Source: Candidatus Saccharimonadota bacterium (GTDB taxonomy: Bacteria > Patescibacteriota > Microgenomatia > UBA1406 > GWC2-37-13). Taken from it: DNA of 32,000 nucleotides. Position numbers and translations under genes: made by a program. Below, in pieces: positions 2,421 through 16,743 of the stretch. Location of the stretch: the NCBI GenBank assembly GCA_001790095.1, contig MGBH01000001.1, forward strand, positions 540,001-572,000. The letters run 5' to 3'. The first letter of the stretch is position 1; each line of letters opens with the position of its first letter. The notes under the pieces are model-generated. The model was not told the DNA's origin. It made no database searches and saw nothing but the letters and a program-made list of their open reading frames with translations.

Positions 2421-2543
2421 ATTGAGAAATATCTACTAATTTATATTTAGATTAAATATAACGCACGCAATATTCATTTACAATATAGGTTACTTTTTTT
2501 ATCACACGAGCGCTGATTCTTTATAAAGAAATTTAAAAATAAG

Positions 2544-2617
2544 TCGGGGTAGTGAGACTTGAACTCACGACCTCACGGTCCCGAACCGTGTGTTCTAGCC
2601 ATCTGAACTATACCCCG
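2544..2617 (-). tRNA. tRNA-Pro (anticodon CGG), 74 nt, CCA not encoded
   Basis: The reverse complement folds by hand into a cloverleaf:
- Acceptor stem: CGGGGTA / TACCCCG
- D arm: GTTC-AGATGGCTA-GAAC
- Anticodon arm: CACGG-TTCGGGA-CCGTG, giving anticodon CGG
- Variable loop: AGGTC
- T arm: GTGAG-TTCAAGT-CTCAC
- Discriminator: A. Confidence 0.9.
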
Positions 2618-2680
2618 TGATGAACGATGTTTTATTATACCTTATTTGTGTTTATATACCCTATTTTGTACAATTGATCT

Positions 2681-3457
2681 ATGGATTTCTCACTGCTTAC
2701 CTATAATACCCTTTTAAATGATGCAGTATCTGGACTAAAAACAATATGCTCCTCTCAACGTCCTGACTTCATATGTCTGCAGGAAATCGATACTACAACC
2801 AGTACCTTCCAAAAAGTAGAACGATTAGGATACAAGCTTGCAGACTATTCTAACGCCTTCATTAAATACGGTCATATATATGGCGTTGCTACTTTTTACA
2901 ATCCTCATAAATTTGAATTTCGTGCATCAAAAGTTATCCTCTTACCAAAAGGGCTTTTGGAGATGGTTGGTTATCTGCTTAGGATTTTCAAAACGGGCAA
3001 AAAAACACGTACCGTTCTCAAAACTGAGTTCCTATGCAAAAAAATGAAAAATAAGGTCATCATATATAATATCCATCTCTCAGCCCACGGTACCAACCAC
3101 ATACGACTTAAACAAATTCAAACGACCCTTAATGATGTGGGCTTAATAAAGACTAATAAACCAACCATACTTACAGGAGATTTTAACTATCCATACGGTA
3201 GAAAAGGCCTTGAAGGGCTCATGCATAAATATGACTTTAAGGAAGCCACAAACAAAATACTTTTTACGACCGAAGGAGCCATGGCCCACTATACTTTTTT
3301 TGAGAAAATCCTTGGGAGCATCTTCTTTAGAATTATGCGTCATCGACTAAAGCTTGACTATATTTTCTATAAAAATTGTCAATCGATGTATGCAAAAAAG
3401 GTAAATGTGCAGTATTCAGACCACTATCCGGTCTATGCCATGTTTAAACTCATTTAA
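2681..3457 (+). CDS. Endonuclease/exonuclease/phosphatase (EEP) family protein
   Basis: 258-aa ORF with EEP landmarks: LLTYNTL, DFICLQEID, IYNIHLSAHG, TGDFNYP and a C-terminal SDHYPV. A TACAAT hexamer (2669-2674) lies 6 nt before the ATG. Confidence 0.75.
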   Translation: MDFSLLTYNTLLNDAVSGLKTICSSQRPDFICLQEIDTTTSTFQKVERLGYKLADYSNAFIKYGHIYGVATFYNPHKFEFRASKVILLPKGLLEMVGYLLRIFKTGKKTRTVLKTEFLCKKMKNKVIIYNIHLSAHGTNHIRLKQIQTTLNDVGLIKTNKPTILTGDFNYPYGRKGLEGLMHKYDFKEATNKILFTTEGAMAHYTFFEKILGSIFFRIMRHRLKLDYIFYKNCQSMYAKKVNVQYSDHYPVYAMFKLI

Positions 3458-6864: not shown

Positions 6865-8079
6865 ATGTCTATCATAAAACCACAAACATTAAAGGGCTTT
6901 CGTGACTTTTTACCAAAAGAGGCGGCACAGAGACAATGGCTTAGAAATATTATGTCAAAAGTGTGTGAAACGTGGGGATATGAACCTCTTGAAACACCTA
7001 CACTGGAACCCTTGGAATTGTTTGCAGGGCAGATCGGTGAAGATGAAAAATTATTTTTTAAGTTTAAAGATCAAGGGGGACGCGATGTCGCTTTGCGATA
7101 TGATCAAACAGTACCAACCTGTCGCGTAATCGGTCAATATAATAATCAACTAATTTATCCATTCCGCAGATATCAAATACAACCCACATTTAGAGCTGAA
7201 AAACCACAAAAAGGAAGGTATCGTGAATTCACTCAGTTTGACATTGACATCTTCGGAGTTGCTTCACCAAGCGCAGATGCGGAAGTTATAGCAGTAACAT
7301 TAGATATTTACAAAAAATTGGGTTTCAAAAGAGCAGTTGCACTCATTAATAACCGCGACCTCATGAAAGATGTTCCTTATACCGCTATTGCGTCAATTGA
7401 TAAACTCAAAAAAATTGGTGAAGAAGGTGTCATCGGTGAGATGATGAAAAAAGGAATAGAAAAGGGAAAAGCAGTCTCTTATTTGAAATATGTCCAAAAT
7501 ATTCAACCTGATAAAACTATTCAAATAATATTTGATTACCTGGAATCTTCGGGTTTTTCAAAAGATTGGTATAAGTTTGAACCAACCTTAGCGCGCTCTT
7601 TTTCATATTCTCAAGGTCCCATATGGGAAATCGTTATCCCTGAATATGATGAAAATAGTTCGGTTGGTGGAGGTGAACGTTACGATGCTCTCATTGAAAA
7701 AATAAGCAGACAAAAAGTGGCGGGAACTGGTATCGGAATAGGGTTTGACCGAACACTTGAATCGGCTCTAGCATGTGGTCTTGTTCCTGACTTTAAATCT
7801 ATTTCAAATGTATTAGTGACTGTATTTTCTCAAGAACTATGGAATGAATCAATAAAGATTTCAAATAGTATCCGTAGAAATAACATATCGGTTGAACTTT
7901 ATCCTGATGCACAGATCAGACTCGACAAACAACTTAAATATGCCAATAAGAAAGGAATTCGCTATGTAGTGATAGCCGGTCCTGAGGAGATTAAGTTGAA
8001 TGTAGTAAAACTGAAGGACATGAAAACCGGAGAACAGAAAACAGTAAGGTTAGAAAACATAATAAATCTAAAGTTTTAA
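6865..8079 (+). CDS. hisS: Histidine--tRNA ligase
   Basis: 404-aa ORF with LKGFRDFLP, RYDQTVP, FRAEKPQKGRYREFTQFDIDIFG (class II motif 2) and GGGERYD (motif 3 region). Confidence 0.92.
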   Translation: MSIIKPQTLKGFRDFLPKEAAQRQWLRNIMSKVCETWGYEPLETPTLEPLELFAGQIGEDEKLFFKFKDQGGRDVALRYDQTVPTCRVIGQYNNQLIYPFRRYQIQPTFRAEKPQKGRYREFTQFDIDIFGVASPSADAEVIAVTLDIYKKLGFKRAVALINNRDLMKDVPYTAIASIDKLKKIGEEGVIGEMMKKGIEKGKAVSYLKYVQNIQPDKTIQIIFDYLESSGFSKDWYKFEPTLARSFSYSQGPIWEIVIPEYDENSSVGGGERYDALIEKISRQKVAGTGIGIGFDRTLESALACGLVPDFKSISNVLVTVFSQELWNESIKISNSIRRNNISVELYPDAQIRLDKQLKYANKKGIRYVVIAGPEEIKLNVVKLKDMKTGEQKTVRLENIINLKF

Positions 8080-8082
8080 ACT

Positions 8083-8123
8083 CTTATTAATCCGTTAACC
8101 CGTTAATTCATTAATTGAATAAT
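8083..8123. repeat. 8-nt-periodic (N)CGTTAA / TTAAT array in the hisS-prfA spacer
   Basis: Reads ttattaat ccgttaac ccgttaat tcattaat tgaataat. It contains the 15-mer gttaacccgttaatt (8094-8108), which recurs at 11143-11157. Confidence 0.55.
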
Positions 8124-8819
8124 ATGCTCATAAATCCAAACATTGCAATTATTGAGAGCCTTCCCGGAGTCGGGGGAGATGAGTCAAAGATCTGGATGAA
8201 CGATCTACTTATGTCCTACATTAAATACTCCCAAAGACATGGACTAAAAGCCATACCGCTTGATGAAAATATTCTGAAAATATCAGGAGACAATGCCTAT
8301 CAACTATTTAAGCACGAAACAGGCGTACATCGCGTACAACGCATTCCCGATACTGAAAGAAAGGGTCGGATACATACCTCAACTGCAACAATCGTCGTAC
8401 TCCCTCAGATCATCAAATCAGATGTACACATCAATCCATCTGATCTTGAATGGCAGTTTTACCGGTCTGGAGGAAAAGGAGGACAAAATGTAAATAAAGT
8501 CTCAACAGCCGTCAGACTGACCCATAAACCTACAGGTATTATCACAACAGCTAGTCAAGAACGCTACCAAGAAGCAAATCGTAAAATAGCGATGGATCTA
8601 CTTATAAGTAAGCTATACCAACTTGAAGAAGAGAAAAAAAGAGGAATAATGCAGTCATTTGTGAGAAATATCGGAACAGGAGAACGTTCAGACAAGGTAA
8701 GAACTTATAACTTTCCCCAGAACAGGCTGACCGACCACCGCATAAACAAAAGTTTCCACAACCTCGAAGACATCATCTCTCAAGGAAAATGGGATAAGGT
8801 GTTTGAAGCACAAAAATGA
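8124..8819 (+). CDS. prfA: Peptide chain release factor 1 lacking N-terminal domain 1 (about 231 aa)
   Basis: - RF1-type codon-recognition region: [28 protein letters not shown] (PxT tripeptide).
- GGQ motif: [25 protein letters not shown].
- Conserved [15 protein letters not shown].
- The N-terminus ([15 protein letters not shown]) aligns to the start of domain 2 of E. coli RF1.
- The first ATG is at 8124; the ORF track uses TTG 8115.
- hisS ends at 8079, leaving no room for domain 1. Confidence 0.85.
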
Positions 8820-10045
8820 ATAAAAGATCTTCGCTGTTTATTCCTTTTTCCTATAGGGACTTCCGTCTCGCATGGATAGGGTTTTTCATCTCTCAGATTG
8901 GTACTGAGATGATTCTTATTGCGATAAACTGGCAAATCTACGTCATTACAAAATCTCCTCTTTCTCTGGGTATTATAGGTATGGCTCGTTTTTTACCAGT
9001 ATTAATGTTTGCTCTTTTTGCTGGACTTTTTGCTGACCTGGTGAATCGTAAGAAACTTATATTTGTATCTCAGCTCGTATTGATTATAAGCACTTCATAT
9101 CTTGCTTTTTTAACCTTTACTCACCATATAAATCCCTTACTTATCTATCTTTTGGTGGCTATAAACTCAACCGCTTATACATTTACATCTCCTGCCCGTC
9201 AAGCTCTTTTGCCTCATTTAGTACCGCGTAAACATTTTATGCAAGCGGTAAGTCTTAACTCTCTTATGTGGCAGTTGTCAGTCATAATCGGACCCATGAT
9301 TGGAGGATTTATCATTGGCTATTTAGGTATTCCGCTTGTATATACTATTGGAGTCTTTGCCTTCATGTCAGTAAATATAACCATGCTTTTATTAAAACCT
9401 ATTCCTGTTAACACCAACAACACTACGTTTGGTCTTAAGAGTGTGAGAGAAGGTCTTGGGTTTGTCAAAAGATCTCCCCTTATATGGAGTACTATGCTGC
9501 TTGATTTTTTTGCCACTTTTTTTGCCTCATCCATGACTCTTATGCCAATCTTTGCAAAAGATATATTAAATGTGGGACCACAGGGACTAGGCATATTATA
9601 TGCAGCTCCATCTGTTGGAGCCGTCGTTGCGGGGTGTGTATTTTCGTTATTTCATAATGTACAAAGACAGGGGAAGATCCTACTTGTCTCAGTTTTTATA
9701 TACGGCGTAGTGACAATCTTTTTTGGCTTTTCTCGATTGTTTCCTTTTTCTCTTGTGTGTTTAACAATCGCTGGAGCTTGCGATATGATAAGTAGCGTCA
9801 TCCGCAACACCATGAGACAACTTATCACCCCTGATCATCTCCGAGGCAGGATGACCTCAGTCAATATGATTTTTTATCTTGGCGGGCCTCAGCTCGGCGA
9901 GGTTGAGGCTGGTGTAGCTGCCACCCTTTTTGGTACTCCAATGTCTGTCGTACTGGGCGGAATCGGAACTATGGTCATAACAACGATCATGGCATATGTG
10001 GTTCCAACACTTCGTCGTTATGACAATCACAAAGAAATCGCTTGA
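8816..10045 (+). CDS. MFS transporter (EntS / MFS_3-like)
   Basis: 409-aa polytopic [23 protein letters not shown]... is typical of the EntS-like MFS subfamily. The ATGA start/stop overlaps prfA. Confidence 0.8.
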
Positions 10046-10100: not shown

Positions 10101-10400
10101 ATGAAAGCAAAAATCCATCCACAATTTTTTGAAGAAGTACAGGTCGTATGTGCCTGTGGCAATAAATTTATGACTGGTTCAACCGTTAACTCCATTACGG
10201 TTGAAGTGTGCAACAAATGCCACCCTCTTTATACCGGAGAACATCGTTTTGTTGATACAAAAGGAAAAGTTGAAAAGTTCCAAAAGAAACAAAAGCTAGC
10301 CGCAGAAATGCAAAAAAAGCTTTCTTCATCTAAAGTGAAGAAAGAGGAAAAAGCAGAAAAGAAGACTAAGTCGCTGCGTGAATTGCTTCAGGAGTCATAA
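10101..10400 (+). CDS. rpmE: 50S ribosomal protein L31 (Zn-ribbon type A) with Lys-rich C-terminal extension
   Basis: From ATG 10101: MKAKIHPQFFEEVQVVCACGNKF...VCNKCHPLYTG, with a CxC...CxxC zinc motif. The ORF-track start at 9996 overlaps the MFS gene and is not credible. Confidence 0.88.
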   Translation: MKAKIHPQFFEEVQVVCACGNKFMTGSTVNSITVEVCNKCHPLYTGEHRFVDTKGKVEKFQKKQKLAAEMQKKLSSSKVKKEEKAEKKTKSLRELLQES

Positions 10401-10549: not shown

Positions 10550-11095
10550 ATGCTATCTACTGATAAAAAAAACCAACTTGATAAAGTAACTAATTTCTTA
10601 AAAAAAACTCCAAGCTTTAGCCTCCTTAAGTTTGAAAAAACCACTCATGGTGCGCTTGAGACTCTCCGCAAACAACTAAAAAAAAGCGATGCAAAATTAA
10701 TGGTGGTTAAAAACACTATTTTACAAAAGGCAATCAACAAACTTGCCAGTTCAAAAGATACTTCGTACCTTAAGGAAGTGCAGAAAAAAACTAAAACACT
10801 GCGTGAGAACACCGCGGTCTTGGGATTTGGTCAGGACTGGAGTGCTGGCATGAATGTGTTTTATTCTTTTCTAAAGGCTGACAAAACAGTCGGATTTAAG
10901 GTTGGTTGTCTTGATAAAAAAATGTATGAAGAAACCGATCTCATCCGTATCGCACAACTACCTGGAAGAGGCGAGCTTATAGGTAAGATGCTTGGTGGTA
11001 TGCAAAGCCCAACCACACACTTTATTCATGCCTTGAAATTCAACATGCAGAAACTGGTATATGTATTGAATGCAAAAGCAAAACAAACGAATTGA
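10550..11095 (+). CDS. rplJ: 50S ribosomal protein L10
   Basis: 181-aa ORF. The N-terminal pattern ...LRKQLKKSDAKLMVVKNTILQKAI matches the L10 consensus (..ELR..LR..G..L.V.KNTL...A.). It sits directly upstream of rplL. Confidence 0.85.
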   Translation: MLSTDKKNQLDKVTNFLKKTPSFSLLKFEKTTHGALETLRKQLKKSDAKLMVVKNTILQKAINKLASSKDTSYLKEVQKKTKTLRENTAVLGFGQDWSAGMNVFYSFLKADKTVGFKVGCLDKKMYEETDLIRIAQLPGRGELIGKMLGGMQSPTTHFIHALKFNMQKLVYVLNAKAKQTN

Positions 11096-11096
11096 G

Positions 11097-11178
11097 TAAT
11101 TAACGTATTAACGTATTAACGGATTAGATAATTCGTTAATTTGTTAACCCGTTAATTGGGTAATTAGTAATTCTATAT
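11097..11178. repeat. 8-nt-periodic TTAACG / CGTTAA array (imperfect inverted repeat) in the rplJ-rplL spacer
   Basis: attaacgt attaacgt attaacgg, then attagata, then attcgtta atttgtta acccgtta attgggta attagtaa. The left and right halves are partly complementary. Confidence 0.55.
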
Positions 11179-11199
11179 CTTAAGGAGGTGACGTATATA

Positions 11200-11592
11200 A
11201 TGGCAGAAATAAAACTATCAGAAAAACTAGAAAAAATCGCAAAAGAACTTGAAGGATTAACCGTCATTGAGATGGCGGATTTAGCAAAGTACTTAGAGGA
11301 AAAGTTCGGCGTTTCAGCTATGCCCGTTGCAGCAGTAGCCGCACCAGCAGGCGCAGCGGCCTCACCACAAGAGGAAAAAACGACTTTTACCGTCACACTT
11401 ACTGATGCTGGAGCAAATAAACTTGCAGTTATCAAAGCAGTTCGTGAAGTACTACCAACTTTAGGCCTTATGGATGCTAAGAAACTCGTCGAGGGAGCTC
11501 CAAAAGAGTTACTTAAAGACGCAAAGAAAGACGACGCACAATCAGCAAAAACTAAGATTGAAGCAGCGGGTGGCAAAGTAGAGCTTAAATAA
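11200..11592 (+). CDS. rplL: 50S ribosomal protein L7/L12
   Basis: - From ATG 11200: [38 protein letters not shown].
- An Ala-rich hinge follows.
- The C-terminal domain reads [26 protein letters not shown]...AGGKVELK.
- A strong SD, AAGGAGGTG, lies 9 nt upstream. Confidence 0.93.
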
Positions 11593-11607
11593 GAAATCAA
11601 TAAAAAG

Positions 11608-11636
11608 AAACCCCTCCGATTTGGAGGGGTTTTTTG
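11608..11636 (+). terminator. Rho-independent terminator after rplL
   Basis: aaaCCCCTCCgatttGGAGGGGtttttt: a 7-bp GC stem, a 5-nt loop and a T6 tract. Confidence 0.85.
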
Positions 11637-11680
11637 TAGGGTTGATGTAGTAATACACCTTTACTAAGTGCTGCATATTC

Positions 11681-13625
<1,945 letters not shown>

Positions 13626-13649
13626 TGACGTTACTAATTAATTAATATT

Positions 13650-14162
13650 ATGAATCTATCAAAACTGACTCAAGGAAAAAACCCGCCTAGTGAAATCAAT
13701 GTATTGGTTGAAATACCACAGGGAAGTCCTATTAAATATGAAGTAGATAAAGAATCAGGCTACGTCATAGTTGACCGTTTCGCATTTACGACCATGGTAT
13801 ACCCATTTAACTATGGTTTTATACCCTCAACTCATGCTGAAGACGGAGATCCTGTTGATGTTTTGGTTATTTCAACCTACCCCGTACATCCTGGCACCGT
13901 TATACCAGCGCGCCCCATAGGTATGCTTGAGATGGAGGATGAGGCAGGGATCGACACAAAAATACTGGCAGTTCCAACAAAAAAAGTTGATCCTTTTTAT
14001 GCTGACATTGAGGATATTGACGACTTAAATGAAACAGCAAAGAAAAAAATTCAGCATTTTTTTAATCATTATAAAGAACTTGAACCAGGCAAATGGGTAA
14101 AAACTAAGAATTTTTTATCTAAAGAAAAAGCGCTTGAAGCAATAAAAAATGGAATGAAATAA
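13650..14162 (+). CDS. ppa: Inorganic pyrophosphatase (family I)
   Basis: 170-aa [30 protein letters not shown]...DGDPVDVLV and KILAVP match soluble family I PPase. Confidence 0.9.
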
Positions 14163-14166
14163 ACCT

Positions 14167-16743
14167 ATGACAGATACTAGCAAACCAACACCTATTGATC
14201 CAAAAAATGTCACAACTGAGATAACTACTGAGATGAAACGCGCATATCTTGATTATGCGATGTCTGTCATCGTTTCACGTGCCCTTCCTGATGTCAAGGA
14301 TGGTTTAAAACCTGTTCATCGAAGAGTGCTTTACGCTATGCACAAAATGGGTCTTTCATCTGGTGCTCGTTTCTCAAAATCTGCAAAAGTAGTAGGTGAG
14401 GTGTTGGGTAAATATCATCCACACGGCGATTCATCGGTATATGAGGCAATGGCCCGTATGGCACAAGACTTTACCATGCGATACCCTCTGGTTAAAGGTC
14501 AGGGAAATTTTGGTTCAGTCGATGGTGATCCTCCAGCAGCTATGCGTTATACTGAAGTAAAATTAGCCAAAATTGCGGATGAATTGCTTTTTGATATCGA
14601 CAAAGAGACTGTTTCGTGGACCGACAATTTTGATGCAACTCTCAAAGAACCGCTTTACTTGCCGGGCAAACTACCCAATCTTCTTCTTATGGGAGCAGAG
14701 GGAATTGCGGTTGGTATGGCCACTAAAATTCCTCCCCATAATCTGAATGAACTTATCGATGCGATTTGTTTCATGATTGACAAGGCAAAAATAGATACTA
14801 ATAATAATGACAAATCCAATAAAGATACTGATAAACAAACCCCTTCAATAAAAAAACGCCTTATATTTAATGTTACGATAGATGAATTGTTTGAGTATAT
14901 CAAGGGCCCTGATTTTCCAACAGAAGGAATCATATATGGAGCTGCCGATATAAAACAAGCTTATGTGACTGGAAAAGGAAAGGTGCTGATACGGGCTAAG
15001 ATCGAGGAAGAAGATATGGGAAAAGGCAAGATGGCAATGATTGTACGCCAACTTCCTTATCAAGTAAATAAGGCTAATCTTGTTGAAAAAATTGCTCGGC
15101 TCGTCACCGATAAAAAGATTGTAGGCATTTCTGATCTACGAGATGAATCTGACCGTGACGGTATTAGGGTGGTTATCGAACTAAAACGTGATGCATCTTA
15201 TAAAAAAGTGTTAAACAACCTTTTTAAATTTACCGAGCTTCAGACTTCATTTCCTGTAAACATGGTTGCTCTTGTTGATGGCATCCCTCAAACTCTGTCA
15301 CTCAAAACTATCCTTGAACTGTATTTAAAACATCGTGTCAACATGGTCACGAGACGCTCTGAGTTTGAACTTAGAGAAGCAAAAAAACGCGCCCACATCC
15401 TGGAGGGATACCTTATAGCGCTTGATCATATAGATGAAGTCATCGCAGTCATTAAAAAATCTAAAGATGAGACCGAGGCAAAGCTGAAGCTTATGAAAAA
15501 ATTTGGTCTCAGTGAAGCACAGACTCTAGCCATTCTTGAGATGCAACTTCGTCGCCTCACCGGTCTTGAAAGATCAAAGATCCAAGATGAACTTAAAATG
15601 TTAAGAGAAACTATCGCATATCTTGAGTCGCTTCTTAAGGATATTTTCAAAGTTTTGAAAGTCATAAAAGATGAGCTTCTTTATCTAAAAGAGAAATATG
15701 GCGATGAACGAAAAACAAAGGTTATCAAGTCGCGCCCTGGTGAGATTACTGATGAACAACTTATTGAAAACAAAGAAGTAATCGTCGTCCTTACCAAAGA
15801 AGGATATATCAAACAAGTTCCTCGTGAGACATTCCGCGTCCAAAATAGAGGAGGAAAAGGAGTCTCAGGTATTGAGACAAAGGAAACTGACAATGTCTAC
15901 CATATCACAACCGCCATGACTCATGATTTTATTCTGTTTTTTACCAACCAAGGACGTATTTTCCAAAACAGAGTTTGGGATATTCCACAAGGATCCCGCA
16001 TCTCAAAAGGGAAGGCAATCATCAATCTCCTTACTCTACGACCTGAGGAAAAAGTTACCTCTCTTTTGACGTATCAATCGCCAAGCGATGCGCCACAAGC
16101 TGCCATCATCCAAGGAAAAACAACGGCTATCACAAAGAGCTTCATATTTATGGTCACCAAACACGGAACAGTAAAAAAGACACAGTTCCAAGATTTTGCA
16201 AACATTCGCAACAACGGCATTATCGCTATCAAACTTGAGCCAACCGATGAACTCTTGTGGGTAAAAATCACTGATGGCAATATGAACATCCTCCTGACTA
16301 CTAAACACGGAAAAGCCATTATATTCAAGGAAGGTGAAGTAAGACCAACGGGGAGGGCATCCATTGGAGTAAAGGGAATTGAACTCGAAAAAGAAGATGA
16401 GATTACCTCAGCTGATGTATTTGCAAATTCCGAATTCAAGAAAAACATATTTGTAATTGGAAAAAAAGGTGTTGGCAAGAAAACAAACCTATCCCTTTTC
16501 AAAGGCCAACATAGAGGCGGCAAAGGAGTAAAGGTAGCATCAGTTGATGAAAAGATCGGACAGATCGTCTTTGTTCAAATCATAAATCCCGAAGACACAA
16601 CGGTTATTATCACCAGTATGCAGGGACAGGTTGTAAAGATTCCTCTTGGTTCCATCCCTCCACGTTCACGCTCAGCCAAAGGGGTCATTCTTATGCGATT
16701 CTCCCAAAAGGGGGATGAGGTTGTAAGCGCAACTTTAGTTTGA
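14167..16743 (+). CDS. gyrA: DNA gyrase subunit A
   Basis: 858-aa ORF with [30 protein letters not shown], the [19 protein letters not shown], the active-site region AAMRYTE, and C-terminal beta-pinwheel repeats. Confidence 0.95.

Follow-up and report, generated by a model that had tools for sequence, protein, structure and literature searches.

Can a release factor 1 (RF1) that begins only at its domain 2 be the ordinary terminator of a bacterium, or is such a gene a decaying copy, a rescue factor, one half of a split gene or an artefact? In a typical RF1 the N-terminal domain makes contact with the ribosomal stalk and with RF3, and an ORF for an RF1 without this domain lies in the stretch of 32,000 nucleotides analyzed here (the window, to which coordinates refer). 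The coordinates, motifs and boundaries that a first-pass annotation had given for this ORF were all correct when compared with the ORF, the sequence and the Pfam matches. The locus comprises the following features.

6865 to 8079, + strand: hisS (histidyl-tRNA synthetase), complete, the upstream neighbor (Pfam tRNA-synt_His and HGTP_anticodon, to residue 401 of 404)
8080 to 8123, + strand: hisS-prfA intergenic spacer of 44 nt, with an in-frame TAA at 8112-8114
8124 to 8819 including the stop codon, + strand: prfA orthologue (RF1, 231 amino acids, domains 2, 3 and 4 only; ORF, Pfam, NCBIfam, PDB alignment and AlphaFold2)
8346 to 8354, + strand: codons of PxT (Pro75-Asp76-Thr77), the tripeptide by which RF1 discriminates stop codons (sequence)
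8478 to 8486, + strand: codons of GGQ (Gly119-Gly120-Gln121), the peptidyl-tRNA hydrolysis motif (sequence)
8816 to 10045, + strand: MFS_3 transporter gene, overlapping the prfA stop codon in an ATGA (Pfam)
10101 to 10400, + strand: rpmE (ribosomal protein L31), in conserved synteny with prfA (Pfam)
10550 to 11592, + strand: rplJ (L10) and rplL (L7/L12), stalk proteins, apparently normal (Pfam Ribosomal_L10, Ribosomal_L12_N and Ribosomal_L12)

The RF1 ORF starts at ATG 8124 or at an alternative TTG at 8115, and the N-termini of homologues (MLINPN, MIINPN, MNINSN) favor the ATG. Since only 44 nt lie between the hisS stop at 8079 and the ATG (35 to the TTG), with hisS in another frame and an in-frame TAA placed 9 nt 5' of the ATG, there is no coding room for domain 1 upstream, as had been noted. 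The 3' end is whole, also in line with the earlier reading: the alignment to RF1 extends to the C-terminus and the TGA stop (8817-8819) overlaps the ATG of the MFS_3 gene. A scan of the hisS-prfA spacer for promoters and terminators gave matches no better than chance. The GC content of the window, a stretch of housekeeping genes, is 38.6%. An identical protein is found in the database as 'hypothetical protein A2334_05760' of Candidatus Roizmanbacteria bacterium RIFOXYB2_FULL_38_10, and the same locus is present on NCBI contig MGBF01000001.1 (1.217 Mb, GCA_001790045.1).

Elsewhere in the window, two ORFs of 189 (803-1372, + strand) and 348 amino acids (1374-2420, - strand) gave no Pfam match, and other assemblies of the same genome have gene calls for both. 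A compact S-adenosylmethionine cycle cluster (22180-25606, - strand), in which metK, a gene for a pfkB-family kinase and ahcY share one orientation, adjoins pyruvate kinase and lepA. Rfam and ARAGORN detected a single RNA gene in the window, a tRNA-Pro (CGG) at 2543-2617 on the - strand.

Profile searches located the missing part precisely. Pfam PCRF aligns to the RF1 protein solely over profile positions 102-194 of 194, so that its N-terminal part is absent, as an HMM or structure-based alignment had been expected to confirm; Pfam RF-1 (PF00472, the GGQ domain 3) aligns over positions 3-116 of 116 with E = 1.2e-35. The NCBIfam prfA models align from position 106 or 114 to the end, with 267.5 bits for NF001859 (cut-off 400) and 260.9 bits for TIGR00019 (cut-off 423.25), scores that fall under the equivalog cut-offs because the domain is absent. 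Among the models compared, RF1 (267.5 bits) scored above RF2 (178.9), PrfH (68.5) and ArfB (54.3), and among PDB matches RF1 chains likewise rank over those of RF2. In alignments to solved chains, residue 7 of the protein pairs with residue 87 of T. maritima RF1 and with residue 106 of T. thermophilus RF1. Residue 8 pairs with E. coli RF1 residue 111, from where the alignment continues to the C-terminus; the ORF thus opens at the start of domain 2, which the first-pass annotation had placed at about the same point.

The RF1-type codon-recognition region and the GGQ domain reported from the sequence are both present. The codon-recognition region [17 protein letters not shown] was found, including PDT, and every residue for reading the stop codon is there: PDT, GxxE at the helix tip, Q in RVQR, and both I and T in RIHTS. 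An assignment to RF2 was considered and is not borne out: the tripeptide is PDT, not SPF, and the C-terminal block [15 protein letters not shown] is of RF1 type, not RF2 type. Across 109 truncated homologues there is no variation in the decoding residues (P75 and T77 of PxT included), in GGQ or in the RTYNFPQ block. An AlphaFold2 model built from these 109 homologues (mean pLDDT 86.3) superposes best on open, ribosome-bound RF1 (TMq 0.70-0.73), as compared with about 0.55 for compact, free RF1. The window gene therefore encodes an RF1-type class I release factor without domain 1, its PxT region and GGQ intact.

The domain-2 beta-hairpin of the window RF1 (window 8250-8275, residues ~43-50) is about 10 residues shorter than that of canonical RF1. 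This deletion is common to the Microgenomates-type truncated RF1s and also occurs in some relatives with a reduced domain 1 (P0126, P0129, L006); Parcubacteria-type proteins (L010, L016, P0132) keep the residues. One entry, P0125, carries the deletion yet groups with the other clade.

A specialized rescue or quality-control factor resembling PrfH or ArfB, in place of a general terminator, would be consistent with the hairpin deletion, which amounts to some remodeling of the decoding module, and with PrfH, which also lacks domain 1 naturally (PMC1586002). We consider this reading very unlikely. The protein falls far under the cut-offs of the PrfH (68.5 vs 166.65 bits) and ArfB (54.3 vs 100 bits) models, in agreement with the initial claim that it is distinct from both, and the ArfB model aligns to residues 99-137 only. 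All RF1 decoding residues (PxT, Q/I/T, GxxE) are canonical, and instead of an RtcB-like partner the neighbors are hisS and rpmE. The 29 genes of the window end with TAA (14), TGA (12) and TAG (3), so the standard code applies; since TAG terminates 3 of the 29, RF1 activity is required, and since TGA terminates 12, RF2 activity must exist elsewhere in the genome.

An artefact of annotation or assembly, that is, a wrong start, a frameshift or a chimeric contig, had to be considered as well. The 50% representative library contains chimeric or duplicated RF1 entries: P0121 and P0127 have an internal tandem duplication of ~130-170 RF1 residues, P0133 joins a domain-1 remnant straight to GVHRVQR, and in P0139 an unrelated N-terminus is fused. 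As several representatives are chimeric, lengths in this library are unreliable at face value, and the odd short entries that look like chimeras, fusions or duplications (P0133, P0139, P0152, P0154, P0121 and P0127) were left out of the evidence. Moreover, one apparently truncated RF2 (L162, described below) proved to be a frameshift artefact. For the window gene, however, such an explanation has next to no chance. The in-frame stop codon 9 nt upstream and the different frame of hisS argue against a wrong start, and the exact protein was read, with identical neighbors, on 24 contigs (of 57 index blocks) in assemblies from ENA, JGI, NCBI and Logan, MGBF01000001.1 among them. The order hisS-RF1-MFS-L31 on these 24 independently assembled contigs excludes the misassembly at 8080-8124 that had been named as a possible refutation, and the same truncation is found in two apparently closed genomes of the Candidate Phyla Radiation (CPR), AP024682.1 (562 kb) and AP024680.1 (786 kb), where the truncated gene lies 18-53 nt after rpmE.

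The position of the gene was then compared with that of prfA in other bacteria. In about 30 loci spread over many phyla, rpmE and prfA are adjacent; Planctomycetota, Cyanobacteria and Chloroflexota are among the groups in which the RF1 at this place is full length. The order hisS-L31-RF1 is found in CPR loci with a reduced domain 1 (L005, L006) and with the truncated RF1 of Gottesmanbacteria (L004). Roizmanbacteria have RF1 directly after hisS, then one inserted gene and L31-L10-L12-gyrB, and in the window one MFS gene alone separates prfA from rpmE. As rpmE adjacency is kept across truncated, reduced and full-length forms, the truncated gene occupies the place of prfA, and the window gene is a positional as well as a sequence orthologue of prfA.

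The MFS_3 insertion between prfA and rpmE is specific to the window species; in the sister species, an unrelated ORF of 260-295 amino acids without a Pfam match takes its place (L211/L212, 4733-5620). The rplJ-rplL pair lies outside the usual rplKAJL-rpoBC cluster, with rpmE before it and gyrB, ppa and gyrA directly after it (rplJ to gyrA, window 10550-16743); rplK (L11) and rplA (L1) are absent from the window.

Could the gene nevertheless be a redundant, decaying paralogue, with a full-length prfA elsewhere in the genome doing the real work? The missed equivalog cut-offs and the NCBI names, which go no further than a PCRF domain-containing or release factor-like protein, speak for this possibility, which we regard as highly improbable. 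Compared with the sister species (88% amino-acid identity), RF1 has a pN of 0.068 and a pS of 0.82; pN/pS is given rather than dN/dS because synonymous sites are saturated. Its dN of 0.072 is below those of L12 (0.086), hisS (0.14), L31 (0.20) and L10 (0.28), so that among these five neighboring housekeeping genes RF1 is the best conserved. The catalytic and decoding motifs do not vary among more than 100 homologues, and the gene holds the ancestral rpmE-prfA position. The exact protein occurs in a single genomic context with one RF gene within ±10 kb, and no second RF-like gene was found within ±10 kb of RF1 in any CPR locus. Short length is a property of the whole family: the best 120 relatives of the window protein are all 228-241 amino acids long (74-100% identity), the best 120 matches to a profile of truncated forms from outside the Roizmanbacteria are all 226-253 amino acids long, and not one of these 240 is full length. 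Purifying selection, family-wide short length and the prfA position thus contradict the decay that had been suggested as an alternative at the outset. The gene is neither an artefact nor a decaying copy and is under strong purifying selection. We consider it probable that it is the organism's ordinary prfA, whose product lost domain 1 in the course of evolution.

The survey of orthologues shows that the truncation is not peculiar to the source genome and is widespread in the ultra-small CPR bacteria. Among the genome-collection loci, L002, L003, L004 (Gottesmanbacteria), L010 and L016 have a truncated RF1 whose start is preceded by at most 12 open codons, too few for domain 1, and the 50% representative library adds truncated RF1 from Amesbacteria (P0123) and several further clusters. 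Sources named among the best 120 profile matches are Gottesmanbacteria, Wolfebacteria, Paceibacterota, Parcubacteria and 'Patescibacteria group'. Intermediate forms of domain 1 have 55-66 residues in some Microgenomates (L005, L006, P0126, P0129), 75-86 residues in Saccharibacteria and Paceibacterota (L008, L054, L081), and 93-116 residues in Peregrinibacteria, Peribacteria and Andersenbacteria. Nearly all non-CPR loci sampled have a domain 1 of about 100-115 residues.

Two of the database labels are probably wrong. L006 is labeled 'uncultured Gammaproteobacteria', and its RF1 and hisS-L31-RF1 context are of Microgenomates type; L016 is labeled 'Candidatus Saccharibacteria', and its RF1 and hisS-L31-RF1 context group with Parcubacteria-type CPR.

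In a neighbor-joining tree of this single gene (229 shared columns), truncated proteins form two clades, a Microgenomates-type clade with 74% bootstrap support, in which reduced forms are basal, and a Parcubacteria-type clade with 89%. This topology suggests at least two independent complete losses of domain 1, one in each clade and each beside lineages whose domain 1 is shortened, a hypothesis in view of the single-gene tree and its moderate support. The loss may have been stepwise, via intermediates with a half-length domain 1. CPR ribosomes are known to be trimmed, and loss of domain 1 would fit an overall trimming of the CPR translation apparatus.

The gradual shortening of domain 1 in sister lineages, rather than a fission, also bears on the idea of a split gene, in which a separate domain-1 polypeptide would associate with the 231-amino-acid core. 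Domain 1 is indeed autonomous, helical and flexibly attached, and in ribosome-bound RF1 structures it is often unmodeled (chains 242-260). A domain-1 HMM was built from 63 full-length domain-1 regions and run in all frames against the window with 10 kb on either side and against nine further loci with a truncated gene, in total about 200 kb around truncated genes at 11 loci, where it gave no match (best E = 3). As a control, the same HMM recovered the reduced domain 1 of L005, L006, L008 and L054 with E values of 1e-3 to 1e-10. Nor is there a conserved small flanking ORF: the gaps to hisS or rpmE measure 18-88 nt, and such spacers are too short for an additional ORF beside the truncated genes. 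Judged from these 11 loci, a split gene is extremely improbable, and loss of domain 1 from an ordinary prfA remains the preferred reading.

For this protein we infer, from its sequence, an activity as ordinary UAA/UAG terminator, most likely acting without stalk contact and without RF3-assisted recycling. The unit of domains 2 and 4 (PDT, GxxE tip, Q/I/T of RVQR...RIHTS) would read the stop codon in the 30S A site, and the switch region would allow domain 3 to stretch out and bring GGQ to the peptidyl-transferase center, where it would trigger hydrolysis. Without domain 1, contact with the L11 stalk region and RF3 recycling would be impossible, and the factor would therefore presumably leave the ribosome spontaneously or during recycling by RRF and EF-G. 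According to the summary of Mora et al. (2003) in PMC1586002, codon-specific peptide release proceeds without domain 1, a truncated RF1 works in vivo, and stimulation by RF3 requires domain 1. A reviewer comment in the same source describes E. coli RF1 activity as strongly L11-dependent; given this dependence, the CPR ribosome may be adapted to an RF1 without domain 1.

Independence of RF3 and absence of prfC would be expected for such an organism. RF3 is missing from 72 of 191 genomes (PMC1780047), and weaker-binding class I factors have been proposed to compensate in bacteria without it (Margus et al., 2007; PMC1780047). The RF3-less Mycoplasma locus (L060) has a full-length RF1 with 114 codons upstream. 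Bacillus, which is also RF3-less, retains a full-length prfA, and since both keep domain 1, loss of RF3 alone fails to explain the deletion. The constraint was presumably relaxed by some property of CPR ribosomes or growth rates.

No RF2 gene was found in the window or in its ±10 kb extension. When metagenomes were scanned with the RF2 pattern SPFD...RRHTSF...GGQNVN, none of the 120 RF2 loci listed was from CPR and none was genuinely truncated. One candidate for a truncated RF2, L162 2181-3195, was rejected, being a Lactobacillales-like prfB with a frameshift, upstream of ftsE and ftsX. The frameshift separates the domain-1 ORF (2181-2525) from the remainder (2455-3195) and is probably an assembly error, not a programmed +1 site. 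Local tests showed that the lineage signal in RF sequences sits in domain 3, and in simulations a CPR RF2 entered the best 120 matches only when its domain 3 was at least about 90% identical to that of RF1. In a Eubacteriales MAG (L055 4451-6271), prfB is directly followed by prfA and the GGQ domains are far more alike than is usual for RF1 and RF2; a query with its RF1 puts its own RF2 at the top of 114 RF2s, which is consistent with gene conversion between the paralogues.

Tentatively, and as a possibility that goes well beyond the reading of the window gene itself, we propose that much of CPR terminates translation with class I release factors devoid of the domain that docks on stalk and RF3, a domain that would have been lost at least twice independently by stepwise shortening. 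If so, CPR ribosomes would run a termination cycle free of RF3 and of L11 contact, RF2 may be trimmed too, with the GTPase-associated center altered to match, and CPR would be a natural experiment on the purpose of domain 1 and on release factor recycling without RF3.

Full-text searches of the literature returned no description of a natural housekeeping RF1 without domain 1 in CPR, with incomplete coverage that makes a prior description possible, and nothing on RF3 in CPR. Every non-CPR lineage sampled, RF3-less Mycoplasma included, had a full-length RF1 with domain 1. The natural form appears to be new, its closest precedents being the engineered truncations (Mora et al., 2003, as summarized in PMC1586002) and the functionally distinct PrfH. 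Purifying selection and apparently more than one loss imply that domain 1 is dispensable in vivo in some cellular contexts, which adds a further translation-factor case to the trimming of CPR ribosomes. These proteins offer ready-made minimal RF1s for biochemistry and cryo-EM, and with them the weaker-binding idea of Margus et al. (2007; PMC1780047) becomes directly testable. NCBI labels truncated RF1 as 'PCRF domain-containing protein' or 'peptide chain release factor-like protein', and CPR genomes can therefore seem to lack prfA in marker-gene and completeness analyses.

Compared with known systems, the window protein has domains 2, 3 and 4 in common with canonical RF1 (prfA; TIGR00019 / NF001859; E. 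coli, T. thermophilus, T. maritima), together with PxT, GGQ, the GxxE helix tip and the switch region, at 40-50% identity over the common part. The rpmE-prfA position is matched and ribosome-bound RF1 is its best structural match. In contrast to canonical RF1, it has no helical N-terminal domain 1 (~105-110 residues), is short by about 10 residues in the domain-2 hairpin and stays under the equivalog cut-offs. The engineered truncated E. coli RF1 and RF2 of Mora et al. (2003), as far as they are summarized in PMC1586002, likewise consist of domains 2-4 only and kept codon-specific release but lost stimulation by RF3; those constructs were made in the laboratory and reportedly caused slow growth, whereas the truncation in the window is natural, selected and lineage-wide.

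PrfH, or RFH (TIGR03072), is a natural homologue of class I release factors that, like the window protein, has GGQ and no domain 1 (PMC1586002). Its decoding motifs are divergent and it always occurs with an upstream RtcB-like gene, whereas the motifs of the window RF1 are canonical and its upstream gene is hisS. ArfB and ICT1-type proteins have the GGQ domain 3 in common with it; they lack domains 2 and 4 and place a basic C-terminal tail in the empty mRNA channel, whereas the window protein has a complete codon-reading module. Its closest full relatives, at 45-54% identity, are the CPR RF1s with a reduced domain 1 (L005 from Microgenomates, L008 and L054 from Saccharibacteria, L081 from Paceibacterota), which share the hisS-rpmE-prfA neighborhood. 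Of domain 1 they still have 55-86 residues, equivalent to the helical C-terminal half ('DPD..MA..E'), whereas nothing of it is left in the window protein.
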